DNA of 64,000 nt from Bacteroidaceae bacterium (GCA_017410245.1 JAFQRE010000042.1:136536-200535), one strand, 5' to 3'; shown: positions 2,391 through 64,000, counted from the stretch's first letter. Notes: a model not told the origin generated them from the letters alone. Translations and numbers: made by a program.

Positions 2391-4084
2391 TATATTATAT
2401 ACACAGACAGGGAAAAGATGTTGCGATTGAAACTGAAACTAAAGAACTAAGCAGTGGCGGACAAGGAAAAATCTATAAAATAAGTTCTCCGTATGAATTC
2501 AAGGATTATTGTGTTAAAATCTACAAAAATAAGAAGCACATAGATGAAAACAAAAATAAAATTCAATATATGATTCTTAATCAGCCGAAAAATATAGATA
2601 TGCATAATATTCGTATTTGTTGGCCTGAATACTCTCTCTATGATAATAAAGGGCAATTTGTGGGGTTTGTAATGAAGTTGGCACTTGGCTTCCCAAAAAG
2701 TAGGGATTTGAAAATTTTAAGTATCTATAGCTTTGGAAAAACTATCAAAGAAAAATATCCTGAATGTAAAGAATGGCACGATAAATTTGAATTAACCAAG
2801 TCTTCTGGAACATTGAACCGGATGAAAATGTTGCATAATTGGGCTTTAGCTGTTGAGTTAATACATGAAACGAAAAAGTATGTGATTGTAGATGTTAAGC
2901 CTGATAATGTTTTAGCTACGGCAGACGGTCGAATTTCAATTGTTGATGCAGACTCATTTCAGATTAATGATGGGGCGAATGTTTATAGAGGGCCAGTTGC
3001 AACGCCTGAATATTTCCCTAAGTTTGCCAAATATATTGAACGACAAAAACGACTTCAAACCATAGATTGTGATAATTTTGCACTAGCTGTCGCTTTTTAT
3101 AAAATTCTTATAGGAACGCATCCCTTTAGTGGTTTTAAATTAAAGCCCCCCTATAATACCGATGAATATGCAGATATTTCATCACATATTGAGGCTGAAT
3201 TGTTTGCATTTGGTAAAAAAACAGATTATATAGAATATTTATCTATAAATAATATGCATGAGCGATATAAAACTCTACCGCTTATTTTAAGAAGTATGTT
3301 TAAATCTGCATTAACAAATCAAAGTAATTTACCCATGGCTACAGAATGGAAAAATGCATTTAAACAAGTTCTGAACGGTCAAGGTGCATTTAAGCCTCAT
3401 GCAGATGTAAAGTTTAATAGTACCCCGAACTCAGAAATGAAATGTCTTTGCGTTTTAGTGTTGGATGTGTCTGGTTCGATGAAATTATGTATTAATAGTT
3501 TAAATGAAGCCCTCGATAAATTTATTCGGGATATACGTAAAGGTGTCAATGGTTTCAATGAAAGTTCGAAGGAATGTATAGAATTATCTATTATCCAATT
3601 TGATAAAGATGTGAAAGTATTGCATTACCCTTCATTAGTAGAACAAATTACCAATATCCCCATCTTAACTGTTCGTGGATTAACCACGAATACCTTGTGT
3701 GCATTGGATACAGCATTCGACGTAGTGGAAAAGAGAAAAAGAGAATATAAAGATTTAGGTATACCCTACTATAGGCCATGGATAATTTTACTTACTGATG
3801 GTAATCCGAATCCACTTAATCAAAATGAACTGAATAAATATGCTTCTAAAATTTCAAATGACATAGCTGAGTATAAATATATGCTAACGGCTATTGGTAT
3901 TGGTGAAAAGATTGATAAAAATATTTTATCAATGTTGAGTGATGGTAATTATAGTTTTATTAAACAAAATGGTTTCTCAAAATTCTTTCAATATTTAAGT
4001 GCTAGTATTAGTAACCCGGATAAGTGTTGTTCTCATGATGATTTGTTAGGAGAAATAGATGATTCTCTATCTATTATGTTGTAG
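2387..4084 (+). CDS. Hanks-type Ser/Thr protein kinase fused to a C-terminal vWA domain
   Basis: 565 aa. ATGA overlap with the PP2C gene. Kinase motifs: GGQGKIYK (G-loop), CVKIYK (beta3 Lys), VDVKPDNVL (catalytic loop), IVDADSF (DFG-like), ATPEYFP (APE-like). The C-terminal half is a second vWA domain (VLVLDVSGSM, RGLTTN, LLTDGNP), clearly paralogous to ORF 532-1239. Confidence 0.8.
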   Translation: MIYYIHRQGKDVAIETETKELSSGGQGKIYKISSPYEFKDYCVKIYKNKKHIDENKNKIQYMILNQPKNIDMHNIRICWPEYSLYDNKGQFVGFVMKLALGFPKSRDLKILSIYSFGKTIKEKYPECKEWHDKFELTKSSGTLNRMKMLHNWALAVELIHETKKYVIVDVKPDNVLATADGRISIVDADSFQINDGANVYRGPVATPEYFPKFAKYIERQKRLQTIDCDNFALAVAFYKILIGTHPFSGFKLKPPYNTDEYADISSHIEAELFAFGKKTDYIEYLSINNMHERYKTLPLILRSMFKSALTNQSNLPMATEWKNAFKQVLNGQGAFKPHADVKFNSTPNSEMKCLCVLVLDVSGSMKLCINSLNEALDKFIRDIRKGVNGFNESSKECIELSIIQFDKDVKVLHYPSLVEQITNIPILTVRGLTTNTLCALDTAFDVVEKRKREYKDLGIPYYRPWIILLTDGNPNPLNQNELNKYASKISNDIAEYKYMLTAIGIGEKIDKNILSMLSDGNYSFIKQNGFSKFFQYLSASISNPDKCCSHDDLLGEIDDSLSIML

Positions 4085-4268: not shown

Positions 4269-5093
4269 ATGGATTCTAAAGTAGCCATTCGAGGATTAGA
4301 TATTTCGACCATACTACATCCTGAAGACAAATCGACGATGGATACCCTGAAAAAGATTCCGGGGTTTAAGACTGTTGTTGATAGGACTGTGGGCAGTGTA
4401 ATGGAAAAATATGCTGCGGTTGAATATTCGGGAGAGGGTATCAATGTATCGGAGCAATGCCTTCCTGCTTTGAATAGTCAGATTAGGGAAGCTTGCAGAA
4501 TACTTGACATGCAGGAGATTCCAAATTGCTCTATAAACTGGTTCTACCATATTGGCTCTTTTTCTGTTGGTGAAAAGAGCAAGCGAATGGTTTTTCCATC
4601 TGGTTCAATAGATTTATTGACAGCGGAGGAACTGAATTTCTTGATAGGTCACGAACTGGGGCACATGAAGTGCGGTCATAAAACGTATCATATGTTGACT
4701 GAGGCTATGTATCGTCCGATGGTAGGCTCGGACATGGAATTTATAATGAGTTTGATTAAGATGCCTCTGCTCAATTGGTATCGAGTGTCGGATTTTACGG
4801 CTGACCGTATGGGACTTTTGTGCTGCCAAGATATTGAGGTGGCCATCAAGACTATGATAAAGATGGCCGGATTGCCCAAGAAATACCATAATCAGATTCA
4901 TATTGAGTCTTTCATTCAGCAAGCAATAGATTTCAACAAGAACCATTCCGGTTTTTTTGATGAGATGGTGAAGTATCTTTCTATTAATGCTGCTTGTATG
5001 CCTTGGTTGGTATTGAGAGCCTCTGAGTTATTGATATGGTATCAGTCGGGGGAGTATGATAGAATTTTGAATAAAAGTAAATCCATCAGATAA
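4269..5093 (+). CDS. M48-family Zn-metallopeptidase (soluble type)
   Basis: 274 aa. FLIGHELGHMKCGH is an HExxH motif in the typical M48 context (NAF-like segment, then EL..hhhHElGH). No obvious transmembrane segments. Confidence 0.7.
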   Translation: MDSKVAIRGLDISTILHPEDKSTMDTLKKIPGFKTVVDRTVGSVMEKYAAVEYSGEGINVSEQCLPALNSQIREACRILDMQEIPNCSINWFYHIGSFSVGEKSKRMVFPSGSIDLLTAEELNFLIGHELGHMKCGHKTYHMLTEAMYRPMVGSDMEFIMSLIKMPLLNWYRVSDFTADRMGLLCCQDIEVAIKTMIKMAGLPKKYHNQIHIESFIQQAIDFNKNHSGFFDEMVKYLSINAACMPWLVLRASELLIWYQSGEYDRILNKSKSIR

Positions 5094-5117
5094 AAGTTAA
5101 ACTTAATATTAGTTGTT

Positions 5118-5324
5118 ATGAATGCAAGTGTAAACAATCGGGTTAATCAGGAAAACATTCTTGCGATATTGAACAACAATGTTATCAAGGAAGAGAGTAG
5201 GAAGGAAGCTATGATAGCTATGGGACTTTCGTCTTGTCAGGTGGCTTGTATGTCATATAAATGCTGCACCGGGCATGGTAGTGGAGGAAAACACTCCCGA
5301 CATTCCTATAAGATTAAGCATTAG
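5118..5324 (+). CDS. putative RiPP precursor peptide (68 aa, Cys-containing core)
   Basis: The stop lies 2 nt before the radical SAM start. The N-terminal ~35 aa look leader-like (NQENILAILNNNVIKEESRKEAM). The C-terminal part, SSCQVACMSYKCCTGHGSGGKHSRHSYKIKH, has 4 Cys and a His/Lys-rich tail. Confidence 0.5.
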   Translation: MNASVNNRVNQENILAILNNNVIKEESRKEAMIAMGLSSCQVACMSYKCCTGHGSGGKHSRHSYKIKH

Positions 5325-5326
5325 CA

Positions 5327-6556
5327 ATGGAGATACGGACACGCTCTGGTAATATATACTCTTACAACAAACATACCGGCGAGATTCTTGGCGGTTCTAT
5401 AAGTGCGCAACTTCCTGTGTGGGATTTTGCGCCTTTTGTCTCTTTTGAGTCAATGCCGCAAGTCGATTCGTTTATCTTGGGGATAACAGAGCAATGTAAT
5501 CTTCGTTGTACTTATTGTTGCTACTCCGGGAGCTATGTTAATAAGCGGGTGCACAATATCACCTCTATGGACTCAAGGGGCATTGATGAAATTCTTGCAT
5601 TTATAGATTCATTTACAGGCAAGAGACCGATTAAATTGTTTATATACGGAGGAGAGCCTTTGCTCAACTACAACTTGGTTAAATATACTATTGAAAAATC
5701 TCGCAAACGATGGAGCAATGATGTGAGTTTTACGATCTCCACAAATGGCACGACCTTGACCAAGGAGCGCATTGATTGGTTGGTGGCTAATAATATTGTA
5801 TTGGCTCTATCTATTGATGGGACAAAACCATTTCACGATAGTTATCGAGTAGACGCACAAGGTAATGGTTCATATACGAGAGTTTATGATGCGTTGAAGT
5901 ACATCAAGACAACTTATCCAGAGTATGCAAAAGAGATGTCGTTGATTATGACCCTCGCATCGTTTGACAAGATCGTAGATATTGCGGAGGCGTGGCATAA
6001 TGATGAGATTTTACACGATATGTCACCCACAATGATGAACTCCTTAGCTCCGAATTTCAGCCAAGGTGTTGATCGGGCAGACTACGAAGAGGTGAAAGAG
6101 TTCTACGATACGTTGCTTGATACTTATGAGAAACATCAAGATTGGGTTGTATTGAGAAAGTTATTAGAGTCTTGTGTTGCATACTGGAAAGAGCGCCCAA
6201 TCTTTGAGCCGTCATCTGCTGTGCCTATGGCCACTTGCCTGCCTAATAACACAAAGTTGTACATCGATTCTAACCTTCAGATAGGTGTATGCGAAAAAAT
6301 GTCTGATAACTACCGCATAGGCAATATCAAGGACGGCATTGATTGGGTTAAGGCTAATTCAGTCGTTCGTGATTACTACAATAAGCGAGTTGAGCGTTGT
6401 AAAGATTGTTCTGCTGTTAGAATGTGCAATATGTGCTTGACAGCGATGGAGTATACAGATGAACAATGGGATATCTTGTGTCACAACGAGCTGGTATATA
6501 CTCGAGTGTTTATGTATCTGTTTTGTGAAATGGCAGAAAGAGGTTTGATAAGATGA
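5327..6556 (+). CDS. radical SAM enzyme with C-terminal SPASM-like Cys cluster (peptide-modifying maturase candidate)
   Basis: 409 aa. C57-x3-C61-x2-C64 (EQCNLRCTYCCYSG), a GGEPLL SAM-binding motif, and C-terminal Cys clusters CLPNN...GVCEKM and CKDCSAVRMCNMC. Confidence 0.85.
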   Translation: MEIRTRSGNIYSYNKHTGEILGGSISAQLPVWDFAPFVSFESMPQVDSFILGITEQCNLRCTYCCYSGSYVNKRVHNITSMDSRGIDEILAFIDSFTGKRPIKLFIYGGEPLLNYNLVKYTIEKSRKRWSNDVSFTISTNGTTLTKERIDWLVANNIVLALSIDGTKPFHDSYRVDAQGNGSYTRVYDALKYIKTTYPEYAKEMSLIMTLASFDKIVDIAEAWHNDEILHDMSPTMMNSLAPNFSQGVDRADYEEVKEFYDTLLDTYEKHQDWVVLRKLLESCVAYWKERPIFEPSSAVPMATCLPNNTKLYIDSNLQIGVCEKMSDNYRIGNIKDGIDWVKANSVVRDYYNKRVERCKDCSAVRMCNMCLTAMEYTDEQWDILCHNELVYTRVFMYLFCEMAERGLIR

Positions 6557-7047
6557 GTGTTATTCCCAATGTAAGTACAAAGCATAGTCTGCTTACTCAT
6601 GTATCAGAAGAAGATATGAGCACACTCCGAGAAATCTTCGAGGATGTCGAGACCAAAAGATTTCTTCCAGAGCTATATGAACTATTAGATGCTCCTGCAG
6701 GCTTACAAAAATTTGTTTCAACCTTTGAACTATATTCGCAGAATGGTGAAGGGTATTTGTGGGGCATTTATTGTGATGATACGTTGCTCGGATTTGTCGC
6801 AGTAATAGATTTGTCATACAATCCTTCTCTTTTTTACGCTACCCACCCGGCATATCGTTGTCATGGATATATGAAAGGTGCTATATCGGCTGTCTTAGAT
6901 TATATTGGAAAGAGAAGTCTGTGTCATAATATATCAACCGATGTGTATAAAGCGAATAGCACCTCTATACATATTCTACAACAATTAGGTTTTAGTGTTT
7001 ACAAAGAGGACTGTGATAAAGTTTATTTGTCAAAGGTACTTGCTTAG
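6553..7047 (+). CDS. GNAT-family N-acetyltransferase (RimJ/RimL-like)
   Basis: 164 aa. ATGA overlap with the radical SAM gene. GNAT-like core: LLGFVAVIDL, YRCHGYMKGAISAVLDYI, NSTSIHILQQLGF. Confidence 0.65.
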   Translation: MSVIPNVSTKHSLLTHVSEEDMSTLREIFEDVETKRFLPELYELLDAPAGLQKFVSTFELYSQNGEGYLWGIYCDDTLLGFVAVIDLSYNPSLFYATHPAYRCHGYMKGAISAVLDYIGKRSLCHNISTDVYKANSTSIHILQQLGFSVYKEDCDKVYLSKVLA

Positions 7048-8734: not shown

Positions 8735-8938
8735 ATGGGTATTTTCGTAAATGACAGAGCTTGGAATCTTAAGCAGGCCAAAGATAGAAAAGAACATGGC
8801 GATTGGCATGTTAGAAAGGCTAATGAAGCGTTGAGAAGAGGTGATACTTCGGCTTATAATGACCATATGTACCGTTCAAAAATTTACTATAATGAAGCTG
8901 ATGCATATATGGCTTCTGCTAGAAAATCTACCAAATAA
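8735..8938 (+). CDS. hypothetical protein (67 aa)
   Basis: Track ORF, charged and helical, co-directional with its neighbours. Confidence 0.4.
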   Translation: MGIFVNDRAWNLKQAKDRKEHGDWHVRKANEALRRGDTSAYNDHMYRSKIYYNEADAYMASARKSTK

Positions 8939-9004: not shown

Positions 9005-10063
9005 ATGACTAAAGACGCGATTGATCAAATATTCGACCGAGCCCGCCACGGAGATGTCTTTGCCCAAACACTTATGGGGCAAATACTCTGCGAGGGCAAG
9101 TATGTGCAGCAAGATAGGCAGAACGGCATAGGCTGGCTTAGAGATGCAGCGCAGTGTAATTGCTTATACGCAAAGGAACTCATCAATGAGTATTTGAGTG
9201 GGCAAGTAAATGCACCTCATGGCACAACTCATGAACAAAGACCAAACTCAACTGAGGACAATACTGATGTGGATAATCTTGCAGAACTGAAATCGCTGAT
9301 TGGTCTTGAGCGTGTAAAACAAGATGTCGATTCGTTGCGTAACCTTATCAAGATTCAGGCCATGCGTAAGCAACAAGGCTTGCCCAATACTTCGGTATCG
9401 TACCACTGTGTTTTCTCGGGCAACCCCGGTACGGGTAAGACTACGGTTGCTCGCATCGTAGCCGGTATTTATAAAGAGCTTGGCATCTTGAAGAAGGGGC
9501 ACCTTGTAGAAGTAGATCGTTCGAAACTTGTTGGCGAATATGTAGGTCAAACAGCCCCTAAGACCAATAAGGTGATAGATGAGGCTCTCGATGGCGTGCT
9601 ATTTATCGATGAGGCATACACTCTCGTTGGCGAAGGAAGCGATTATGGTGCTGAGGCTATAGCTACTCTGCTCAAACGTATGGAGGACGATCGTGATCGT
9701 TTGGTTGTCATACTTGCCGGTTATACGAATGAGATAAAGGAGTTTATTGACTCCAATCCCGGGTTGCAATCTCGCTTCAATCGTTACATACAGTTTGATG
9801 ACTATTCGGCCGAGGAATTGACCGAGATTTTCAAACGCAACTTGCGCAAGTCGAGATACAAGATTAAGCGTGATGCCTTCGAGGAGTTGCAAAGTGTCAT
9901 TGAGCGTGCTGTCGCCTCACGCGACAAGAACTTCGGTAATGCACGATATGTACGCAACCTTTTTGAGAAGGTTGTTCAGAATCAGGCAAACCGCTTGGCC
10001 AGAATGGCTAGTATTGATAACGATGAGTTGAGTATAATTACTCGCGAAGATATTAACTTCTAA
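9005..10063 (+). CDS. Sel1-repeat + SpoVK/CbbX/EccA-type AAA+ ATPase
   Basis: 352 aa. The N-terminus is Sel1-like (GDVFAQTLMGQILCEGKYVQQDRQNGIGWLRDAAQ). Walker A is GNPGTGKTTVARI and Walker B is GVLFIDEAY. The segments LVGEYVGQTAPKT and RLVVILAGY are typical of the CbbX/SpoVK clade. Confidence 0.85.
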   Translation: MTKDAIDQIFDRARHGDVFAQTLMGQILCEGKYVQQDRQNGIGWLRDAAQCNCLYAKELINEYLSGQVNAPHGTTHEQRPNSTEDNTDVDNLAELKSLIGLERVKQDVDSLRNLIKIQAMRKQQGLPNTSVSYHCVFSGNPGTGKTTVARIVAGIYKELGILKKGHLVEVDRSKLVGEYVGQTAPKTNKVIDEALDGVLFIDEAYTLVGEGSDYGAEAIATLLKRMEDDRDRLVVILAGYTNEIKEFIDSNPGLQSRFNRYIQFDDYSAEELTEIFKRNLRKSRYKIKRDAFEELQSVIERAVASRDKNFGNARYVRNLFEKVVQNQANRLARMASIDNDELSIITREDINF

Positions 10064-10074
10064 CCCAGACGAAT

Positions 10075-10602
10075 ATGGACGAACTAAACAATCTTTTCGG
10101 CGGAGCCGAGCAGTTGTGGCAATATATCAAGATATATGCTGCCAAAGCCGGTCGTGAGGCTACGCGCGTAGTGTTGGAATTGTACTATGTGGTCAAATCA
10201 CCGCATACACCGGCATTGGATAAGACTCTTATCATCGCTGCGCTCGGATATCAACTTCTTCCTAATGACTTAATGAGTCGAGAAAAATATGGTTGGTTGG
10301 GTATCCTTGATAATGGAGCTGCCTTGGCATTAGCATATAATAGAGTTAAAACCCGTGTTACGCCACAAATTGAGGCGCAAGTAGATGCAATACTTGACCA
10401 GTGGTTTGGCTCGGACATACAACAGACTCAAGCTCCCATAGAGCAACCTCAAATAAATAATGACAGTAATAATGGAGGAAACAACTATTGGGAACCACAG
10501 GCCTCAACATTACCCTCTACACTCGATTCCCCTATTAATTCAAATCGTCCTAATACTCCACTGGGAGGTTATAGTGATGATGAAGATGTTGTGATTGATT
10601 GA
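10075..10602 (+). CDS. DUF1232 (YkvA)-like protein with Gln/Asn/Pro-rich tail
   Basis: 175 aa. IIAALGYQLLPNDLMSREKYGWLGILDNGAALALAY resembles the DUF1232 core (Y..sP.DliPD..p.lG.lDD). The C-terminal 60 aa are low complexity. Confidence 0.5.
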   Translation: MDELNNLFGGAEQLWQYIKIYAAKAGREATRVVLELYYVVKSPHTPALDKTLIIAALGYQLLPNDLMSREKYGWLGILDNGAALALAYNRVKTRVTPQIEAQVDAILDQWFGSDIQQTQAPIEQPQINNDSNNGGNNYWEPQASTLPSTLDSPINSNRPNTPLGGYSDDEDVVID

Positions 10603-10666
10603 TGAAGAGTGCAAGGCTTACTGAAATTCTATAATATATAACTATGGTATATAAATTATAAGTATT

Positions 10667-10828
10667 ATGAATCACTATTGTATTATAATTAAAGAAAAAG
10701 ACAGAGAAAAAGAGTGGGTTTGTCACTTGTTTAGAGAGGAGGAATTATCTGAAGAGGATATAATAAGAATTTATGGACTCAAAGATGGAAGTGTTGAATG
10801 GTATTGTATTAATAAAATGAAGGATTAA
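10667..10828 (+). CDS. possible 53-aa ORF
   Basis: Hand-translated: MNHYCIIIKEKDREKEWVCHLFREEELSEEDIIRIYGLKDGSVEWYCINKMKD. It fills an otherwise empty 300-nt gap. No other support. Confidence 0.2.
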   Translation: MNHYCIIIKEKDREKEWVCHLFREEELSEEDIIRIYGLKDGSVEWYCINKMKD

Positions 10829-10906
10829 TACAATATCCTCCTAATACTAATTGAGTGAAACTTTTAGTTCTATGTATAATAATGATATATTGGCAATTAT
10901 AACAAT

Positions 10907-11563
10907 ATGTTTAACAAATTCAGGTGTTGGTTATTCAATCATACTTCTATGAATGAGTTCCTGAAGATGAGTCAACGCTTCAAGAAGTTTGGCTTGTCGC
11001 CCAATGATGTGGAGGACGCTATTAAATCGGCGTGCGATTTCTTTCATATCCCCATGCCTTGTATGATTCAAGACCTGACCAATGTAAAGAATGGGCAGAC
11101 TATGTTTGTAAACTACAATAGAGGTAGTTATGATGATGATGTGTTGTGCTTCAATATGCAACAATTGGTCGATATGAAGGTTGATAGCAAAGAGGCATTC
11201 AGCCTTGTCATGACTCACGAGTGTGCTCATCGTGTATTGCAAAACACACAGTTCCCGGGAGTGAATAATGGCATATGGGAACATGAACTTGCAGCCGACT
11301 TTTTGATGGGCTGTCGTGCCGGACTATGGAATATGGACGAGTCTAAACTTGCAGTGGGGCTAATCCTAACCAATGGAAGCCCCACACACCCCGAAGGTAC
11401 AATAAGGGCTCTTTTTATTCGTCATGGCAAGTATAAGGCGATAGAAATGCGAAATAAATCCATACCATTGACTATTCCCAATTTGCTTAATGAATTTATG
11501 AAGTACCGACAAGAGAACTTAGAACTTATACATCAGTATCAACGAAAGTTTTATAGATTTTAA
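10907..11563 (+). CDS. putative Zn-metallopeptidase (HExxH)
   Basis: 218 aa. LVMTHECAHRVLQN is followed by EHELAADFLMG. The start codon is uncertain, with alternative Met at residues 15 and 21. Confidence 0.5.
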   Translation: MFNKFRCWLFNHTSMNEFLKMSQRFKKFGLSPNDVEDAIKSACDFFHIPMPCMIQDLTNVKNGQTMFVNYNRGSYDDDVLCFNMQQLVDMKVDSKEAFSLVMTHECAHRVLQNTQFPGVNNGIWEHELAADFLMGCRAGLWNMDESKLAVGLILTNGSPTHPEGTIRALFIRHGKYKAIEMRNKSIPLTIPNLLNEFMKYRQENLELIHQYQRKFYRF

Positions 11564-11722
11564 GAAATGGACAGAATAGACATATAGCCATAGTTTTCTC
11601 CCATTATATTCTCATATAAATAAAAATCGGCTATATTTTTATCTGTAAAAGATATTTTTAGCTCGGGTTACTACTCTATACGATAAAAGAGTTGGTAATC
11701 CGAGCTAAAAGTTTATAAAGAC

Positions 11723-13507
11723 ATGAATGCAACATTGAGCATAGGACAAAAGGTTGGAGATTTCTGCGTTGAGGAGTTTGTCAAGACTTCTTCTGATAAT
11801 CGTGGGGAGAGTTACTTCGTAAGTGACAAAGATGGACGTAAGGCGTTGATGAAGTTGTATGCTGCCGACGCCGAAAGTCACACGCTTGAGTGTGAGGTAA
11901 ATACTGTGTTGTCAATAAACTCTGCATTTGTGCCTATGGTTGCAGTCGGAGATATTGAGCATAATGGTGTTGCTTTTCGCTATATTGTTCGCGAGTATGT
12001 CGAAGGTGAACGCTTGTCGGAGATTGTTAAAGCCGGTCGTCTGTATTCGTGGGAGGAGGCTATGCCTATTATCCTGCAAGTATTGAATGCATTGAAGCAT
12101 CTTCACTCGCTAGATAAGGCGATTATTCACAATGATATTACGGCTCGTAACATTCTTATCAATGAAGAAAGGAAACAAGTCTATATCATCGGTATGGGGC
12201 ATATGTCACATCAATGCAATGGTAGGGCAACTTTTTGTACTAAAGACCTGAACAATTGGTATCGTGCTCCTGAGACCTTCAAAGGTATCTACGGTGTGAA
12301 GTCCGACATCTTCTCTGTTGGAGCTTTGTTGTATACGATGCTTGTAGGCTTCGAGCCATGGGGTGTGATTGCTGATGTATATGGCCCCGATGTGGATAAA
12401 AGTATGTTGAAACGTCTTCGCTCTATTGGTGATGAAATCATAGATGATATTCAAATTACCGATGAGCAGAAAGTGATTTTGGGTAAGATGATTGCTCTTG
12501 ATTACGATAAGCGCTATAGCTGTGTCGATGATGTCGTAAAAGGCATAATACATGGTGTTTCAAAAAAGGATCTTCAAGAGTCACCTTGGTATAGAGTGGT
12601 CAATGAAGAAGCCGATGAGGAGGCCGATGTAGAGCTTGACATAGAAGAAGATGTTGACACAGATGCAACAACAAACGGTGTAAACGGAGGCTTTGCCGAT
12701 GTAGCAGGCATGGCCGATGTGAAAAGTATGCTATATAAAGAAGTGATGTTTGTGATGCAAAATAAAGAGAAGGCCCGTAAATACCGCTTGAAAGCACCCA
12801 ATGGTGTGCTCTTCTATGGCCCTCCGGGGTGTGGTAAGACTTTCATTGCCGAAAAGTTTGCCGAGGAGTCGCATCTTAACTTTATGATGGTTAAGGCTTC
12901 TGATTTGGGTAGTATATATATTCATGGTTCTCAAGGTAAGATTGCAGAACTTTTCGATGAGGCGACTAAGAAAGCTCCAACTGTCATTTGCTTTGACGAA
13001 CTTGATGGAATGGTGCCCGATCGTACATCTATTCAGAACGAAGGTTTATCGGGAGAGGTCAATGAGTTTTTGAGTCAGCTTAATAACTGCTCGGATCGTG
13101 GCATCTTTGTGATAGGTACTTCAAATCGTCCGGAGAAGATAGATCCGGCAATACTCCGTACCGGTCGTATGGATAAGATGGTTTATATCCCTATGCCTGA
13201 TGCTGAGGCCCGCAAAGAACTCTTTAAGATTTACCTTGATGACAGATACTGTGACGAAAGTATCGATCTTGATGAGCTTGCTCAGAAAAGCGAAGGGTAT
13301 GTTGCTAGTGACATAAGTTTTATGGCAAACGAGAGTGCGCTGGAGGCGGCAATGGCTGATGTGCCTATAACTCAAGATTTGGTTCTTGGAGTGATGCGCA
13401 AAGCTCGCCGTTCGGTAACGCAAAATGACGCTGCCGACTATGAACGTATGCGTAAGAAATTTGAGCAGCAAAGCTATAGCCATGAACGCCACAGAATTGG
13501 ATATTAA
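11723..13507 (+). CDS. protein-kinase-like domain fused to classical AAA ATPase (copy 1)
   Basis: 594 aa. N-half is a eukaryotic-like kinase fold: ALMKLY, IIHNDITARNILI, YRAPE, SDIFSVGALLYTML. The DFG position reads IIGMGH. An acidic linker follows (EEADEEADVELDIEEDVDTD). C-half is a classical AAA module: Walker A GPPGCGKT, Walker B VICFDELD, sensor-1 GTSNRP, SRH/Arg finger PAILRTGRMD. Confidence 0.85.
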   Translation: MNATLSIGQKVGDFCVEEFVKTSSDNRGESYFVSDKDGRKALMKLYAADAESHTLECEVNTVLSINSAFVPMVAVGDIEHNGVAFRYIVREYVEGERLSEIVKAGRLYSWEEAMPIILQVLNALKHLHSLDKAIIHNDITARNILINEERKQVYIIGMGHMSHQCNGRATFCTKDLNNWYRAPETFKGIYGVKSDIFSVGALLYTMLVGFEPWGVIADVYGPDVDKSMLKRLRSIGDEIIDDIQITDEQKVILGKMIALDYDKRYSCVDDVVKGIIHGVSKKDLQESPWYRVVNEEADEEADVELDIEEDVDTDATTNGVNGGFADVAGMADVKSMLYKEVMFVMQNKEKARKYRLKAPNGVLFYGPPGCGKTFIAEKFAEESHLNFMMVKASDLGSIYIHGSQGKIAELFDEATKKAPTVICFDELDGMVPDRTSIQNEGLSGEVNEFLSQLNNCSDRGIFVIGTSNRPEKIDPAILRTGRMDKMVYIPMPDAEARKELFKIYLDDRYCDESIDLDELAQKSEGYVASDISFMANESALEAAMADVPITQDLVLGVMRKARRSVTQNDAADYERMRKKFEQQSYSHERHRIGY

Positions 13508-13536: not shown

Positions 13537-13917
13537 ATGAAAATGATTGACAAAGTAATGAATGAGTTGCAGAAACAAGGTTTTCTGCCCCAACGTGAAG
13601 ACTTCGGTATTGCTTTCAAGTACCAAATGGCCGGTTACCTCTTTTTGGCCGATAAGACTGACGATGACTACTTCAGTCTTTATATCCCGTACTTCTTTGA
13701 GGTAGATGAGGAGAATAAAGCAGATGTGCTTGAGGCCATGAATGCTATCAATAATGACGTGAAAGTGGTAAAACTTGTGATTAATGATGGTTATGTATGG
13801 GCTTGTTTTGAAGAAAAGTTACCGGAAAATGCCAATATAGAGGACATTTTATTTTATTCTATTGTAACTTTGTACCTTTCTCGTCAGCAATTTTACGAGA
13901 AGTTGAAAGAGGTATAA
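13537..13917 (+). CDS. hypothetical protein (126 aa; faint YbjN/chaperone-like resemblance)
   Basis: Track ORF 30 nt downstream of the kinase-AAA gene. A hairpin plus T-run follows at 13955-13992. The family assignment is not secure. Confidence 0.45.
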   Translation: MKMIDKVMNELQKQGFLPQREDFGIAFKYQMAGYLFLADKTDDDYFSLYIPYFFEVDEENKADVLEAMNAINNDVKVVKLVINDGYVWACFEEKLPENANIEDILFYSIVTLYLSRQQFYEKLKEV

Positions 13918-34572: not shown

Positions 34573-36486
34573 TTACTTCACTTCCTCAAAGTCCACATCG
34601 GTGAAGTCACCAGCACCTTTGTTGTCGTTGCCGTTTTGTGCACCGGCATTCATATCGGGTGCTTGTTGTGCACCTTGTTGTTGAGCTTGTGCGTTGTAGA
34701 GGTCTTGAGCAGCGGCTTGAAGCACGTTGTTCAACTCTTCGGTGGCAGCGTCGATAGCAGCTATATCTTGAGCCTTGTGAGCATCTTTGAGTTTGCCCAA
34801 TGCACTCTCGATGTTGCTACGCTTGTCGGCTGGGAGTTTATCGCCCATCTCTTTGAGTTGCTTCTCGGTTTGGAAAATCATGGCATCGGCATGGTTGAGT
34901 TTCTCGATGCGCTCTTTTTCCTTGGCATCAGCCTCGGCATTAGCGGCAGCCTCTTCTTTCATGCGTTGAATTTCGGCGTCGCTCAAGCCACTTGAAGCCT
35001 CAATGCGGATACTTTGCTCTTTGCCTGTGCCTTTGTCCTTGGCCGATACGTTGAGAATACCGTTGGCGTCGATGTCAAATGTAACTTCGATTTGAGGTAC
35101 GCCACGCATAGCTGCGGGTATGCCATCGAGGTGGAAGCGACCGATAGTCTTGTTGTCCTTAGCCATAGGACGCTCGCCTTGCAATACGTGTATCTCTACC
35201 GAGGGTTGGTTGTCGGCTGCTGTTGAGAAGATTTCGCTCTTGCGGGTAGGAATAGTTGTATTTGCATCGATAAGTTTGGTCATCACGCCACCCAATGTCT
35301 CGATACCGAGCGAGAGGGGAGTAACGTCGAGCAAGAGTACATCTTTTACATCACCGGCAAGTACAGCTCCTTGAATAGCAGCACCGAGGGCTACTACTTC
35401 GTCAGGGTTTACACCCTTCGAGGGAACTTTACCGAAGAATTTCTCTACGATAGCTTGTATTGCGGGGATACGAGTTGAACCACCAACAAGGATAACTTCG
35501 TCGATATCTGATGTTGACAAGCCTGCGTCTGACAAGGCTTTGCGGCAAGGCTCGATTGTGGCTTGTATGAGGCGATCGGCAAGTTGCTCAAACTTGGCAC
35601 GTGTAAGTGTCTTAACCAAGTGTTTGGGCACACCGTTCACAGGCATGATATAGGGGAGGTTTATCTCGGTAGAGGTTGTGCTTGACAACTCTATCTTAGC
35701 CTTCTCGGCAGCCTCTTTGAGACGTTGCAAGGCCATGGGGTCTTGACGGAGATCTACACCCTCTTCGCTCTTGAACTCGTCGGCAAGCCAGTCGATAATA
35801 ACGTGGTCAAAGTCATCACCACCGAGGTGAGTATCACCATTGGTCGATTTTACTTCAAATACGCCATCGCCCAACTCAAGGATAGAGATATCGAATGTAC
35901 CACCACCCAAGTCAAATACAGCAATCTTCATGTCGCGGTCGCTCTTGTCGAGACCATAAGCGAGAGCTGCTGCTGTTGGCTCATTGACAATACGACGTAC
36001 TGTAAGACCTGCAATCTCGCCGGCCTCTTTTGTGGCTTGACGTTGGGCATCGTTGAAGTATGCAGGTACGGTGATAACGGCCTCAGTTACCTCTTGACCA
36101 ATGTAGTCCTCGGCTGTCTTTTTCATCTTTTGGAGTATCATTGCCGATATCTCTTGGGGAGTGTAAAGACGACCATCAACATCTACACGGGGAGTGTTGT
36201 TGTCGCTACGTACTACCTTGTAGGGCATACGAGCTACTTCGTTTGCAACGCGGTCATAGGTTTCGCCCATAAAACGCTTAATCGAGAAGATAGTGCGTGT
36301 GGGGTTGGTGATAGCTTGACGCTTGGCGGGATCGCCCACTTTACGCTCGCCACCATCTACAAATGCTACTACCGAAGGTGTGGTGCGACGACCTTCACTG
36401 TTGGCTATTACTACAGGCTCGGTGCCTTCCATTACTGCTACACACGAGTTGGTTGTACCTAAGTCAATACCAATAATTTTTCCCAT
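34573..36486 (-). CDS. dnaK: molecular chaperone DnaK (Hsp70)
   Basis: 637 aa with [21 protein letters not shown] and the full Hsp70 layout. Confidence 0.98.
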
Positions 36487-59467: not shown

Positions 59468-60202
59468 TTATTCCATGAGAGGCTCGTTGGGCAGGGCCGA
59501 TGCTATGCTATTATATGACTCCTTCATGAGCGACTCAAGGTTATACTTGCCTTCGGCCGGTGGCATGATAGGCTTGTGAATGGTGAGTGTCACCTTGCCC
59601 GGGTGTACATTGAAGCCACCGCGTGGAAGCAATCGGAACGCCCCGTCGATAGTAAGGGGTACTACCGGTAGCGAAAACTCCTCGGCCAATGTAAACGCTC
59701 CTCGCTTGAATGGGTTCATGTGGCCATCTTTACATCGTGTTCCCTCGGGAAATACCACCAAGGACATACCTCCCTGCAAAGTCTTTTCGGCATGTTGCAT
59801 GGTCTTGCGGATAGATGCCTTAGATGAGCGATCGACCATGATATGGCCTGCATACTCACATGCAGTACCCACAAAAGGTATCTTCTTGAGCGATTTTTTC
59901 ATCATCCACTTGAAGTTGTGTCCTAAATAGCCGTAAATGAGGAAAATATCGAATGCGCCTTGATGATTGGCTACAAAGACATAGGAAGTCTTGGAGTCAA
60001 TATTTTCGTGTCCTCGTATTTCGGTGCGAATAAGCAAGATGGCACAGAAACATCTTGCCCATATCATGGGTGGATAGTATCCCCAAAAGTCACGATTGCC
60101 TATGGCACAACCTATAATCGTAATAAGGGCTATCAAGATAGTGAGTACGATGAGAATGGGCAGCGCTATGAGCCATTGATATAAAATGTATAGAAATCGC
60201 AT
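59468..60202 (-). CDS. plsC: 1-acyl-sn-glycerol-3-phosphate acyltransferase
   Basis: 244 aa with an N-terminal TM segment, NHQGAFD (HX4D) and VFPEGTR motifs. Confidence 0.85.
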   Translation of the reverse strand: MRFLYILYQWLIALPILIVLTILIALITIIGCAIGNRDFWGYYPPMIWARCFCAILLIRTEIRGHENIDSKTSYVFVANHQGAFDIFLIYGYLGHNFKWMMKKSLKKIPFVGTACEYAGHIMVDRSSKASIRKTMQHAEKTLQGGMSLVVFPEGTRCKDGHMNPFKRGAFTLAEEFSLPVVPLTIDGAFRLLPRGGFNVHPGKVTLTIHKPIMPPAEGKYNLESLMKESYNSIASALPNEPLME

Positions 60203-60840: not shown

Positions 60841-61045
60841 AATGTCTCAATATAATTTAACAGCGAATTTAGTTATTTCTTGCTTATAAACAAAGGTTAT
60901 AAAGGTTAAGAAATTAAAATCGCATAATAAACACCAATAAAAAGATAGAAAAATTTTTTTTGAGCATCTATGTTTTTGCTTAGTACATGCAAGTACTTGT
61001 GCAAAATGGTAAAAAAGATTGTGCAACCCCCAAAAGACGATTGAG

Positions 61046-62827
61046 ATGAAAAAAGAAGCAACACTATCGGTAGGAGCCAAAGTAAATGGTTATAGAGTTA
61101 TTGGTTTTTTGAAGTCCGATGCACATGGCGTAGAAAGCTATCGTGTGAGAGATAAAAATAATAACCGAGCAATTCTGCGTTTGTATGCAGACGATGTGGC
61201 GAGTGTAACACTTGAGTATATTCATCGCGATTTGTTTGCCGATGAGTTGGGCCCCTTTGCGCAAGTATTAGCCTCGGGTGTAAAGACGGTAAATAAGCGT
61301 AAATATCGCTATGTCGTACGTTCGATAGTTCTGGGACGACCTATTGCACGATGTTTGGAAGCAAAAAAGAAGTATAATTGGCTCGAAGTACGCGACATTA
61401 CTTATCGCATACTCATGGCATTGAAATACCTGCATGGGCAGAAACGTTCCATCATTCACAACAACATCAAGAGCAGCAGTGTCTTGATAGAGAGTTACGA
61501 TGATGACTTCAAGTCGGTGTATCTCTTGGGTACATCGCAATTCTCATATAGTGGTACACAAAATGCTTTGTCCGACACTTCTATTAGAAATCTGCTTTGT
61601 CGCGCTCCCGAAGCTTATGACGGTATATGCAACGAGCGTACCGATATTTTTATGGTAGGCTCGTTGATGATAGATATGTTGTTGGGTATGGAGAAACCTT
61701 TACCCGACAATCTTGGTGAAGGCGAAAAGTATAAAAAGTTCTTTGTCAATTACTTCAGAACTCTCTATAACAGCACAATGGTGGCCTTTTTGCCTCTCAC
61801 CGATGCACAGAAGAGTTTTGTGCTGAAGATGGTGGCCTTCAAGCCCGAAGATCGTTTCCAAACGGTTGATGAGGTGTTGGAAAGTTTAATTCAATGCGGA
61901 AATGAAGTCGCTCCCAATGTTATTGAGGAAGACGATATAACATTGCCCGATATTAGCGATGTTACCGACTCAATAGCCTTGCAGTGTAGCCCAAAACGTG
62001 GAGGCTTGAACGATGTGGCCGGTATGGAAGAACTGAAGCAAGTGTTGCAGAACAATGTGCTCTATGTGTTGCAAAACCCCGACATTGCTGATAAATATGG
62101 CCTTACCATTCCCAATGGTATGTTGCTGTATGGGCCTCCCGGGTGTGGAAAAACCTTTATAGCCGAAAAGTTTGCCGAGGAGGCCGACCTTAATTTTGTC
62201 AAGGTGAAGTCGTCCGACATTGGCAGTGCATATCTGCATGAGACGCAACACAAGATAGCCGAACTCTTTGAGGAAGCCGAGGAGAATGCTCCTACAATAC
62301 TTTTCTTCGATGAGTTTGATGGAATAGCTCCCCGCCGTTCGGGGTTGAATTGCGAGCATATTTCGAGCGAGGTCAATGAACTCTTGTGTCAGCTCAACAA
62401 TTGTTCCGATAGAGGAATATTTGTTATAGTTGCAACCAACTATCCCGAGCGTATCGACCCTGCTATATTGCGCACCGGTCGCATTGATAAAATGGTATAT
62501 GTGCCCTTGCCCGATGCCGAGGCTCGTAAGGAAATTTTCCGATTGAGTCTTTATGGTCGCTATTGTGACGATGATATAGACTATGCCCTTCTTGCTGCCA
62601 AAAGTGAGGGATATGTGGCAAGTGACATCAAATATATTGTGACGGAAAGTGCTTTGGACGCTGCTCGATTGGGTGTGCCTATTTCGCAACAACATATACT
62701 GGAAAAGTTGGAAGTAATTTTTCCTTCGGTTTCAAGTGATGTAGTTGAGCAATATGAGCGACTACGTAAGGAGATGCAACCGCAAAGAGCTTGTACAGCT
62801 AAGTCGCATATAGGATATGTGGCTTAG
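61046..62827 (+). CDS. degenerate kinase-like (pseudokinase) domain fused to classical AAA ATPase (copy 2)
   Basis: Start at the ATG at 61046 (MKKEATLSVGAKVNGY); the track start is TTG. It has the same architecture as 11723-13507. The kinase-fold landmarks are degenerate: AILRLY, IIHNNIKSSSVLI, LLGTSQFS, CRAPEAY. The AAA module is intact: GPPGCGKT, ILFFDEFD, ATNYPE, PAILRTGRID. Confidence 0.85.
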   Translation: MKKEATLSVGAKVNGYRVIGFLKSDAHGVESYRVRDKNNNRAILRLYADDVASVTLEYIHRDLFADELGPFAQVLASGVKTVNKRKYRYVVRSIVLGRPIARCLEAKKKYNWLEVRDITYRILMALKYLHGQKRSIIHNNIKSSSVLIESYDDDFKSVYLLGTSQFSYSGTQNALSDTSIRNLLCRAPEAYDGICNERTDIFMVGSLMIDMLLGMEKPLPDNLGEGEKYKKFFVNYFRTLYNSTMVAFLPLTDAQKSFVLKMVAFKPEDRFQTVDEVLESLIQCGNEVAPNVIEEDDITLPDISDVTDSIALQCSPKRGGLNDVAGMEELKQVLQNNVLYVLQNPDIADKYGLTIPNGMLLYGPPGCGKTFIAEKFAEEADLNFVKVKSSDIGSAYLHETQHKIAELFEEAEENAPTILFFDEFDGIAPRRSGLNCEHISSEVNELLCQLNNCSDRGIFVIVATNYPERIDPAILRTGRIDKMVYVPLPDAEARKEIFRLSLYGRYCDDDIDYALLAAKSEGYVASDIKYIVTESALDAARLGVPISQQHILEKLEVIFPSVSSDVVEQYERLRKEMQPQRACTAKSHIGYVA

Positions 62828-62844
62828 TATTTCTATAACTATTA

Positions 62845-63507
62845 ATGAGTTTTGTAATGATATATAACCCTGTTGTGAAGGATTGGGAAAAGCGATTGAA
62901 TGATGCTATTATGAATGTAACATTAAAACATAGAGGCAATAGTAATGAGGAGATGCTATACAAGGCATTACCCTTGCTGATACACGATAAAAAAGTGTAC
63001 CGCGTAAAAGAGTTGGGCGAGAACATCGCTGTAGTACAGCAACTTATATGGGGGTGGTGGAAGCATCGCTATTTGGTAGATAACTATCATTGTCGTGCCT
63101 ATGAGATTATGGACGAGAGCATGGATTTTGTGCACTTTACTCACGATGATATTGATTGGGCAAGTATTGAACAACTGCCCGATTGTGCCAAGTTGCGAGC
63201 GAGGGAGTTGTCGGCTCAATTTCCTACCTTTGTGAGGCCGTTCAAAAATGGAGTGGCAGAAGTTGGGTGGCAACTCAATCCCGATGGCCGTTACTATATG
63301 GACGAAGACAGTTATGGTATGACTTCTGACGTAGAGATTACTGTTTATGGTTTCATAGATGCACGAATGAATGTGTTAGTGAAGTTTCGGTATATTGGCA
63401 AAGACTATGGTCGCTTGCAAGATATGCGACATGAAGCCGAGAGCATATTGAGAAGCAGAACAATCAAATGTTGTGACGAAGGCGGTAAACATGACAAAGA
63501 ATATTAA
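62845..63507 (+). CDS. hypothetical protein (220 aa) downstream of kinase-like-AAA copy 2
   Basis: Track ORF, 17 nt after the preceding stop. Trp-rich (LIWGWWKHRY). No family recognised. Confidence 0.5.
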   Translation: MSFVMIYNPVVKDWEKRLNDAIMNVTLKHRGNSNEEMLYKALPLLIHDKKVYRVKELGENIAVVQQLIWGWWKHRYLVDNYHCRAYEIMDESMDFVHFTHDDIDWASIEQLPDCAKLRARELSAQFPTFVRPFKNGVAEVGWQLNPDGRYYMDEDSYGMTSDVEITVYGFIDARMNVLVKFRYIGKDYGRLQDMRHEAESILRSRTIKCCDEGGKHDKEY

Positions 63508-63586: not shown

Positions 63587-63654
63587 TGCGTAAAAATAAC
63601 GCAATTTATTTGGTGGTTTAAAAAACTCTATTTATTTTTGCGTAAAAATAACGC
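63587..63654 (+). repeat. exact 16-nt direct repeat TGCGTAAAAATAACGC (x2) upstream of the NUDIX gene
   Basis: Copies lie at 63587-63602 and 63639-63654, starts 52 nt apart. Each copy has inverted ends (GCGT...ACGC). The second copy ends 8 nt before the ATG. Confidence 0.8.
63633..63640 (+). promoter_or_regulatory. -7 promoter box TATTTTTG for the NUDIX gene
   Basis: Matches TAnnTTTG. It abuts and overlaps repeat copy 2 by 2 nt. Confidence 0.4.
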
Positions 63655-63662
63655 GTTAAAGT

Positions 63663-64000
63663 ATGAGCGAGCAGAAATTTTGTTATAAATATCCGCACCC
63701 TTCAGTTACAGCCGATTGTGTGATTTTCGGTTTTGACGGTGTAAGTATTAAGGTATTGTTGATTCAGCGTGGCATTGAGCCATTCAAGGGCAAATGGGCT
63801 TTCCCTGGTGGTTTTATGAAGATTGACGAGACTGCCGAGGCGTGTGCCAAGCGTGAGTTGGAGGAGGAAACAGGGCTTAAAAATGCTTCTGTTGAGCAGT
63901 TCTACACCTTCTCAGATGTAAACCGAGACCCTCGTGAACGAGTAATAACCGTGGCGCACTATGCCTTGGTAAAACTCTCAGAGGTTAAAGGTGGCGATGA
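63663..64000 (+). CDS. NUDIX hydrolase (3' end outside the window; ADP-ribose pyrophosphatase / NrtR-like N-terminal domain)
   Basis: NUDIX box GKWAFPGGFMKIDETAEACAKRELEEETGL (GX5EX7REUXEEXGU). The ORF runs to the window edge. Confidence 0.85.
   Translation, partial: MSEQKFCYKYPHPSVTADCVIFGFDGVSIKVLLIQRGIEPFKGKWAFPGGFMKIDETAEACAKRELEEETGLKNASVEQFYTFSDVNRDPRERVITVAHYALVKLSEVKGGD

Follow-up and report, generated by a model that had tools for sequence, protein, structure and literature searches.

Introduction

The closest described counterparts of the locus analyzed here are the ADP-ribosylglycohydrolase (ARG)-centric systems, which are predicted to reverse phage ADP-ribosylation (Iyer, Burroughs, Anantharaman & Aravind 2022, Viruses 14:1977; PMC9503650, section 3.8). 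The ARG-centric system is itself a computational prediction only, and the survey that proposed it, in which the TY-Chap1 domain was also first defined, names actinobacteria, planctomycetes and proteobacteria; Bacteroidales are not named (PMC9503650). The gene studied here lies close to the 3' end of a 64,000-nucleotide (nt) stretch of a Bacteroidaceae bacterium genome (GCA_017410245.1, JAFQRE010000042.1:136536-200535), called the window below. It encodes a fusion of a protein-kinase-like domain with an AAA+ ATPase module and is referred to as copy 2, a paralogue, copy 1, being present near the other end of the window; an open reading frame (ORF) of 220 amino acids (aa) follows it. A first-pass annotation, made from the sequence alone, described copy 2 and the 220-aa ORF as a conflict system inserted between housekeeping genes. 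Here we establish the anatomy, phylogeny and neighborhood pattern of copy 2, a pseudokinase-AAA+ fusion that stands at the 5' edge of a conflict island centered on NAD and ADP-ribose.

Parts of the protein also recall the antiphage ATPase IetA, the Cdc48/p97/VAT and PAN ATPases, the kinases of several defense systems, and the pairing of McsB with ClpC-ClpP. The fusion itself has gone without a description: literature searches found no kinase-AAA fusion and no Hsp70/TerB/kinase-AAA system, the family has no entry in PADLOC or among the NCBIfam equivalogs, and the sole name that any source gives to its members is "AAA family ATPase".

Results

A pseudokinase fused to an AAA+ module with intact ATPase motifs

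Copy 1 and copy 2 are full-length paralogues with a common two-domain layout, as first proposed. Pairwise and profile comparison of the two proteins bore out the paralogy (43% identity end to end, BLASTP E 2e-156), and a recount of an earlier hand alignment starting at the Walker A loop gave exactly the same 43 identities in 62 positions. Both proteins match the Pfam families Pkinase (PF00069), AAA (PF00004) and AAA_lid_3; for copy 2, the Pkinase match covers residues 80-278 and scores 46.5 bits, above the cutoff of 31.7, and the PF00004 match scores 121.8 bits. The two AAA modules are 58% identical and their interface motifs are identical. In the family alignment the N-termini of homologues line up with the ATG of copy 2 at 61046; an alternative TTG at 61019 would give 602 aa, and gene callers elsewhere place the start there or further upstream (601-615 aa). 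The ORF is unbroken in every same-species contig shown (L001 and L002-L009; 22 contigs read, several samples), and the ratio of non-synonymous to synonymous polymorphism (pN/pS) is about 0.3 in both domains, calculated from very few substitutions. Copy 1 is 71% identical to a protein encoded at L268.

We compared the catalytic positions of copy 2 with an alignment of 111 non-self homologues. The beta3 Lys, present in 110 of them and in copy 1, is Arg in copy 2 (AILRLY). The Asp of the HxD motif (100 of 111, and copy 1) is replaced by Asn in the catalytic loop HNNIKSSS, and the distal Asn of the same loop (104 of 111, and copy 1) by Ser. At the position of the DFG Asp, Gly is found in copy 2, in copy 1 (IIGMGH) and in 110 of the 111 homologues. 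Copy 2 is therefore a pseudokinase, with R, N, S and G where an active kinase has K, D, N and the DFG Asp. Of the catalytic losses previously ascribed to this copy, those of K, D and N stand, and that of the DFG Asp is not peculiar to it: judged by the alignment, DFG loss is a family trait and not a sign of decay. The fold landmarks CRAPEAY and TDIFMVGSLM are kept, as had been noted.

The ATPase motifs of copy 2 are intact (Walker A GPPGCGKT, Walker B FFDEFD, sensor-1 ATN, Arg fingers RTGRID), so that the census agrees with the original picture of a degenerate kinase half alongside a conserved ATPase. Pore loop 1, with its aromatic-hydrophobic-Gly motif for substrate threading, is GSIYIHG in the family (Gly in 108 of 111) and reads GSAYLHE in copy 2; the Tyr is kept and the Gly has become Glu. 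Mean identity to the family is 30% for the kinase domain of copy 2, versus a family mean of 52%, and 57% for its AAA domain, versus 75%, making copy 2 the most diverged member of the alignment in both domains. The earlier remark that the kinase-like halves are the far more diverged ones is thus right about the kinase half of copy 2 and overlooks that its AAA half is unusually diverged too.

The copy 2 lineage

The family comprises 7929 matches at E<=1e-5, the top ones being proteins of 590-630 aa from Bacteroidales metagenomes. Its members share an atypical protein-kinase-like domain, one AAA+ module of the Cdc48-D2/PAN type and a conserved C-terminal tail. With one genome per species scanned, full-length fusions proved to be Bacteroidota-wide, occurring in Bacteroidales, Flavobacteriales, Sphingobacteriales and Cytophagales, and were also found in a Legionella metagenome-assembled genome (MAG) and in a Flexilinea genome. 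In a neighbor-joining tree of homologues with 100 bootstraps, the two copies fall into different clades, copy 2 with P0005, P0009 and P0027 (100/100) and copy 1 with P0003, P0016 and P0019 (100/100); they were never recovered as sisters (0/100). A recent duplication of copy 1 to give copy 2 is rejected by this result, and of the two origins initially considered, duplication or independent acquisition, the latter fits better.

Shared by the copy 2 clade are HNN or HNY in the catalytic loop, Ser or Thr in place of Asn, the sequence LLG[ST]S and a pore loop unlike that of the family. When a library of 1.84 billion representative proteins was searched with the kinase-like domain of copy 2, the 100%-identical P0001 was recovered (E 2e-204), and only 6 relatives reached E<=1e-30. 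Among these, P0005 and P0241 share the degenerate pattern and P0243 shares most of it, retaining the pore loop of the family. The decay of the catalytic loop, first noted in copy 2, is in its HNN and Ser/Thr form common to a subclade. Because the degenerate state is kept across full-length proteins, this subclade (P0005, P0009, P0027, P0241 and P0243) looks like a stable pseudokinase lineage rather than the outcome of one-off decay. The homologue search found no copy 2 orthologue at 50-90% identity anywhere; orthologues of the neighboring plsC were found at 81%, 77% and 66% identity. A phage origin was rejected, given that the full-length fusion occurs on only 3-4 of 2.9 million viral contigs and a homologue of the 220-aa protein on only one. 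We also observed an 842-aa variant (P0002; L267, 1756-4284) in which a kinase-like domain without HxD precedes two tandem AAA modules; a gene for an HNH protein and five unknown genes share its operon.

Copy 2 stands at the edge of an ARG island

The window ends inside the Nudix gene that follows the 220-aa ORF. A contig of the same species, L002, reaches past this end and carries, in order, copy 2, the 220-aa ORF, a Nudix gene with a helix-turn-helix (HTH) domain, p345 (345 aa), a gene for an 847-aa ARG protein, p136, p471, p193 and a DUF1232 gene. The Nudix protein of L002 (8806-9498) matches Pfam NUDIX and NrtR_WHD. The 847-aa protein (10620-13163) has two ARG regions (ADP_ribosyl_GH, E 1e-92) placed around a DSP-PTPase ("PTP-SAK") domain, with PTP-SAK, Tc-R-P and DSPc matches inside the same protein. 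The flanks named at the outset, an outer-membrane protein (OMP) gene next to plsC on the left and a Nudix gene on the right, do exist at the places given. The description of the site as lying between housekeeping genes does not survive: the downstream Nudix gene encodes an NrtR-type Nudix-HTH regulator and heads an ARG/phosphatase island. Copy 2 is situated at the 5' edge of this NAD/ADP-ribose-centered conflict island.

The genes directly after the 220-aa ORF correspond to the published core of ARG-centric systems. The one-component regulator, which in those systems is of the Nudix-HTH or WYL kind, is Nudix-HTH here, and the ARG domain is joined in one protein to a phosphatase of the rhodanese type (DSP-PTPase); both the pairing of ARG with the regulator and the coupling of ARG to a domain of the rhodanese-phosphatase superfamily are seen in L002. 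The linked peptide-binding chaperone of such systems (vWA, SseB or TY-Chap) was not found at copy 2, and L002 has no vWA gene. Related loci do contain vWA, NADAR, 5'-nucleotidase and TY-Chap1, all of which are named in PMC9503650. ARG-centric systems as published have no ADP-ribosyltransferase or sirtuin coupled to them; none is annotated in the 16.6 kb of L002, but p345, p136, p471 and p193 are without a family match there and the island runs on beyond it. No protease gene is present at 59-64 kb of the window or in L002.

Just upstream of the Nudix-HTH gene lies a pair of palindromes (Table 1). The same type (GCGT-W5-TW-ACGC) occurs in L002 at 8783-8797 and at 13280-13294, the latter before p136, and in L051 at 10127-10141, before an NMNAT-NADAR gene. 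Lying before the Nudix-HTH gene and other island operons in two species, the motif is a candidate operator for the NrtR-like protein.

NAD/ADP-ribose genes recur beside other family members

Counting Nudix-HTH, ARG, rhodanese-type phosphatase, SIR2 and NADAR genes as NAD/ADP-ribose genes, we looked at 16 class I loci (the class is described below) and found such genes flanking 8 of them, the locus of copy 2 included; the gene content of individual loci is given in Table 1. L015 has vWA, WG-repeat, p471-like (46%), p193-like and DUF697 genes without an NAD/ADP-ribose enzyme, and L050 and L052 have DUF1232, likewise without such an enzyme. The same tblastn queries gave no match in 80 plsC-anchored control loci (1.0 Mb) and one weak ARG match in 24 class II loci (0.41 Mb). 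Gene orders vary among the class I loci, which argues for repeated association rather than frozen synteny. The view that the family inhabits variable, conflict-type neighborhoods is supported by these data.

Canonical partners and the C-terminal tail

Two types of locus account for the canonical partners of the fusion. In class I, from gut and rumen Bacteroidales and including copy 1, a gene for a TY-Chap1 protein of about 126 aa lies immediately before or after the fusion gene. Homologues of the 126-aa protein next to copy 1 adjoin fusion genes in at least 10 loci, and the homologue from L017 reaches the gathering score of Pfam TY-Chap1 (PF22551). TY-Chap1 is directly adjacent to the fusion at copy 1, L015-L020, L025 and L268, and not at copy 2; a hidden Markov model (HMM) built from nine partner proteins has no match near copy 2 or in L002. 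In class II, which is monophyletic (100/100), the operon order is an unknown protein of about 500 aa, a coiled-coil protein of about 300 aa, an Hsp70-like protein of about 840 aa, the fusion and a TerB protein of about 165 aa. This operon is present in about 24 genomes of Flavobacteriia, Sphingobacteriia, Cytophagia and Bacteroidales and in a Legionella MAG (L021-L049; for example L030, 5033-12290); it is not in PADLOC, and we found no description of it in the literature. The only Hsp70 match in the window is a DnaK-like ORF at 34573-36486.

In most of the 45 listed family proteins the C-terminal tail has the form [RK]-[IV]-G-[FY] followed by 0-4 residues. In the three full-length proteins with an adjacent ClpP gene (L017-L019) the tail is xGL. 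The fusion has a ClpP paralogue as its immediate neighbor at L017 (11787-12386), L018 (2152-2793), L019 (11840-12442) and L037 (about 11628-12200), and ClpP is the only adjacent peptidase seen beside family genes. We regard the tail as a candidate peptidase-docking motif. It departs from a strict HbYX motif, because the distance of phi-G-F/Y from the end varies. Bacteroidota are not known to have a 20S proteasome.

Relatives within the copy 2 clade have further neighbors that are absent at copy 2 (L183, 5380-6922; L185, 741-1136). In both, a conserved, divergently transcribed gene for a protein of 129-131 aa accompanies the fusion. L183 also has, directly upstream of the fusion, one gene for a 219-aa ECF-sigma-like protein and another for a possible anti-sigma protein of 108 aa.

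The 220-aa ORF

The ORFs downstream of the two copies differ, as first noted, a 126-aa ORF following copy 1 and a 220-aa ORF following copy 2. The 220-aa ORF (p220) follows copy 2 in every same-species contig, and the two genes are probably co-transcribed; a hairpin at the end of copy 2 could modulate read-through into it. Its true start is uncertain, and 62911 is possible because homologues begin at its Met23. The protein belongs to a family of about 388 homologues in Bacteroidales, with no Pfam family and with the highly conserved core WWK.RY ... WQLNPDGRYYMDEDGYGMT ... YGFID. Searches of Pfam (to E 10), NCBIfam, PADLOC and PDB sequences returned only a 16-residue WG-repeat-like match (E 0.02). 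Structure prediction, one of the checks first suggested, gave a confident AlphaFold2 (AF2) model (predicted local distance difference test score, pLDDT, 83; predicted template modeling score, pTM, 0.79), for which a Foldseek search of PDB and BFVD gave nothing significant. The idea that the protein is a recognizable TY chaperone was dropped: the TY-Chap1 HMM misses it as well as the N-terminus of the 478-aa protein described next.

The p220 domain does occur together with a pseudokinase-AAA elsewhere, contrary to the refuting condition first set, that the two never co-occur. L186, a divergent locus and the sole contig of the viral collection that carries the p220 domain, pairs it with a pseudokinase-AAA gene and ARG: a 487-aa pseudokinase-AAA protein (ending RRRIGFQ) is followed by a 478-aa protein with a p220 domain as its last 150 residues (48% identity), then by four genes, a 170-aa second copy of the domain and an ARG gene. 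Copy 2 and L186 aside, no member of the p220 family was found in the loci of classes I and II that we examined. Solitary members lie between a serA-like and a kdsA-like gene, within operons of unknown genes, at the C-terminus of a 310-aa protein after a p471-like gene, and between a TonB-dependent receptor gene and mutS2. From L186 and these solitary contexts, the p220 domain is therefore best seen as a facultative component of this network of genes and not as a general fusion partner. The earlier notion of a swapped partner is accordingly half right: the 126-aa TY-Chap1 protein is the true partner of the family, and the 220-aa family is usually solitary.

The insertion site

Comparison of the site drew on 80 plsC-anchored metagenome loci, of which only L096 and L097 were close enough. 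In L096, the closest relative found (plsC 81%, MatE 86% and purL 94% identical), a P-type ATPase gene and a RelA/SpoT gene stand in place of the OMP, copy 2, p220 and Nudix genes. L097 (plsC 77%) retains the OMP-plsC pair and nothing else of the site. Synteny breaks at plsC/OMP in both. Copy 2 and the 220-aa gene are absent at this site in L096 and L097; the Nudix gene is absent there too. As the two loci lack the whole island, Nudix gene included, a clean two-gene indel cannot be shown. We found neither flanking direct repeats nor a GC shift at copy 2.

Table 1. Features of the window, followed by the gene content of loci that carry other members of the fusion family
Feature	Position	Strand	Basis or remark
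Copy 1, kinase-AAA+ fusion, K, HND and N kept	11723..13507	+	ORF, 594 aa
TY-Chap1 / YbjN-like chaperone, 126 aa, beside copy 1	13537..13917	+	Weak Pfam YbjN match
PlsC-type acyltransferase gene	59468..60202	-	Left flank
OMP_b-brl-like beta-barrel protein, 203 aa	60229..60840	-	Left flank, divergent from copy 2
Copy 2, pseudokinase-AAA+ fusion gene	61046..62827	+	ORF, 593 aa from ATG
Kinase-like domain of copy 2	61046..61990	+	Family alignment, residue census; APE motif retained
Linker, single classical-clade AAA+ module and C-terminal HIGYVA tail of copy 2	61991..62827	+	NCBIfam, motif and tail census
Hairpin with 14-bp stem covering last codons and stop codon of copy 2	62798..62828	+	Terminator-like scan; weak downstream T-run
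220-aa ORF with conserved 'WQLNPDG' domain	62845..63507	+	ORF, 17 nt after copy 2; alternative starts 62857, 62911
Two copies of TGCGTAAAAATAACGC, 52 nt apart	63587-63602 and 63639-63654	.	Just upstream of Nudix-HTH gene
NrtR-type Nudix-HTH regulator gene, 5' part	63663..64000	+	Window ends inside; tblastn 99% identity to L002 Nudix protein
L020: TY-Chap1, Nudix-HTH, vWA/p136, ARG, PIF1 helicase			
L051: TY-Chap1 x2, p471-like, NADAR/5'-nucleotidase, NMNAT-NADAR, Nudix (89% identical), p136, ARG			
L183: Nudix (86%), ARG, vWA, WG repeats, within 4 kb			P0005, clade of copy 2
L186: pseudokinase-AAA, p220-domain protein, ARG			
L268: only a weak phosphatase-like fragment			At contig end
L269/L270: DUF697, SIR2 x2, rhodanese-type phosphatase, WG repeats, PP2C, DUF1232, Nudix-HTH, NADAR			One locus, two records; near Rep3/ParA replicon
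L271: fusion, 126 aa, DUF1232, 144 aa, WG repeats, ARG, NADAR-like			All one strand

Discussion

Relation to known ATPases and kinases

Among PADLOC profiles, the AAA half is matched best by IetA of the IetAS system (E 8e-35; positions 102-318 of the 374 in the profile), and both are AAA+ modules of the classical clade in defense contexts. However, the NCBIfam model IteA_antiphage scores 110 bits against a cutoff of 510, copy 2 has no IetS protease neighbor, and IetA has no kinase-like domain. The closest solved structures for the AAA module are p97 D2 and VAT, both matched with copy 1. The best NCBIfam models for this half (CDC48, PAN and FtsH) are all far below their cutoffs, with 204.9 bits versus 802.65 for copy 2 against CDC48 (TIGR01243), and copy 2 has one AAA module and no Cdc48 N-domain. 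A conserved hydrophobic/aromatic C-terminal tail is common to the family and the Cdc48/PAN ATPases; it recalls peptidase-docking motifs and may have such a role.

Among defense Ser/Thr kinases, PADLOC profiles match copy 1 (mad6, E 7e-31) and copy 2 (MkoA, E 1.5e-16; PD-T4-6, E 8e-13). These matches are limited to the kinase domain, none of PD-T4-6, MAD6 of MADS and MkoA of Mokosh has a fused AAA+ module, and the NCBIfam score for MAD6 is 31 bits versus a cutoff of 460; moreover, copy 2 is without K, D and N, and the whole kinase-AAA family is without the DFG Asp. McsB with ClpC-ClpP offers a working resemblance only, kinase activity being coupled there to an AAA+ unfoldase and ClpP being adjacent in some loci of our family. 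There is no sequence relationship to McsB, ClpC or ClpX, and copy 2 cannot be expected to phosphorylate by the canonical mechanism. The phi-G-F/L tripeptide of the family likewise resembles the IGF loop of ClpX, but is on the C-terminal tail and not on a loop.

Proposed role of copy 2

The explanation that we favor overall, with somewhat more confidence than doubt, is that copy 2 is a kinase-dead, ATPase-competent remodeler or unfoldase accessory to the ARG/Nudix island. It would form an ATP-driven hexamer, with its dead kinase-like domain serving as a binding or sensing module and not as an enzyme. It would act on proteins that the island deals with, such as phage proteins or ADP-ribosylated proteins of the host, and might hand them to ClpP via the C-terminal tail. 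The 220-aa protein would then occupy the adaptor place held by TY-Chap1 beside canonical members like copy 1.

Several observations weigh against this proposal. No TY-Chap1, ClpP, Hsp70 or TerB gene is present near copy 2, and the change of the pore-loop Gly to Glu may impair threading. A kinase-AAA+ fusion is not among the listed components of ARG-centric systems, nor does the term "AAA+" occur in PMC9503650. No palindrome of the candidate operator type lies upstream of copy 2, the pair being between the 220-aa ORF and the Nudix gene; copy 2 is for this reason probably outside the Nudix regulon, and we rejected its co-regulation by the Nudix protein. The 220-aa family is solitary in most genomes, in four unrelated contexts. 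Finally, relatedness among the gut and rumen Bacteroidales that supply many of the class I loci leaves the co-occurrences less than fully independent, and the case of L183 may be inherited synteny, since its Nudix protein is 86% identical to that of the species of copy 2.

The proposal can be widened to the whole family, in a form that we consider doubtful. Kinase-AAA+ fusions would then be an unrecognized unfoldase class of bacterial immunity, in which the kinase-like domain, active or dead, recognizes phage-derived or modified (for instance ADP-ribosylated) proteins, the ring extracts or unfolds them and the phi-G-F/Y tail leads them to ClpP; TY-Chap1 and the 'WQLNPDG' domain would be interchangeable adaptors, and the copy 2 subclade a pseudokinase sensor variant wired to ARG/Nudix islands.

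Alternative explanations

The reading closest to the first-pass annotation makes copy 2 and the 220-aa ORF a self-contained, diversifying two-gene conflict system in which a conserved ATPase is combined with a fast-evolving sensor and a swapped partner, dropped between housekeeping genes and independent of its neighbors. The two genes do share a strand, with 17-83 nt between them, and always occur as a pair in the species, copy 2 is without the Nudix-type operator, the order pseudokinase-AAA then p220-domain protein recurs in L186, and copy 2 lacks an orthologue at 50-90% identity although plsC has them. We nevertheless think this explanation rather unlikely: the genes downstream are not housekeeping genes, relatives are without the Nudix gene at the site as well, p220 is missing from the other class I and II loci examined and turns up alone in unrelated contexts, and neither direct repeats nor a GC anomaly mark the borders of such a unit. 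A functionless, decaying paralogue, orphaned of its TY-Chap1 partner and its kinase chemistry and surrounded by its present neighbors by coincidence, is less probable still. The intact ORF in all contigs seen from several samples, the pN/pS of about 0.3 in both domains (few substitutions), the untouched Walker, sensor-1 and Arg-finger motifs and the same degenerate state in the full-length proteins of the subclade all speak against decay, which could otherwise explain the loss of K, D and N, the altered pore loop, the extreme divergence of both domains and the lack of every canonical partner.

Because both genes are found within one 64-kb window, a partnership between them has to be considered, with copy 2 as a regulatory pseudo-enzyme subunit of copy 1 that enters mixed hexamers or competes for TY-Chap1 or substrates, in one system spread over two loci. 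The similarity of the AAA modules with their identical interface motifs and the lack of a chaperone partner of its own beside copy 2 would suit such an arrangement. We regard it as improbable, however, as the copies belong to different, well-supported clades and the short contigs of P0005 and P0009 show no second family member. Least credible, to the point of being very improbable, is that the family, copy 2 included, serves ordinary ClpP- or Hsp70-linked proteostasis or signaling regulated by phosphorylation, with no relation to conflict. ClpP, Hsp70-like and TerB neighbors do occur, the AAA module is of the Cdc48/PAN/FtsH type, and the family is almost absent from viral contigs; but its distribution is patchy, with close relatives lacking orthologues of copy 2, its neighborhoods hold Nudix-HTH, ARG, SIR2, NADAR, vWA, HNH and PIF1 helicase genes and a Rep3/ParA replicon, and copy 1 itself is in an island with a vWA / PP2C / kinase-vWA triad.

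Should the remodeler reading hold, ARG-centric islands of gut and rumen Bacteroidales would gain an ATP-driven protein-remodeling arm, and a family with thousands of homologues in Bacteroidota would have its first functional frame. The active-looking form (copy 1) and the kinase-dead form (copy 2) in one genome would offer a natural comparison in which the role of kinase chemistry is testable. For annotation, the Nudix gene at this locus is a caution: it is the regulator of a conflict island, and a housekeeping label is a tempting error.

The surroundings of copy 1

The first ~15 kb of the window, copy 1 included, look like a conflict island of their own. They contain a TerY-P-like triad of a vWA gene (532-1239), a PP2C gene (1236-2390) and a kinase + vWA gene (2387-4084), flanked (12-530 and 4269-7047) by genes for a DA1-like metallopeptidase fragment, an M48 peptidase, a radical SAM enzyme and a GNAT protein. 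Directly upstream of copy 1 (9005-11563) are genes for an AAA+ protein of the SpoVK/CbbX/EccA type (352 aa), a DUF1232 protein (175 aa) and a 218-aa HExxH protein (MTHECAH). Homologues of this DUF1232 protein (42-45% identical) are encoded in L002, L050, L052, L269 and L271.

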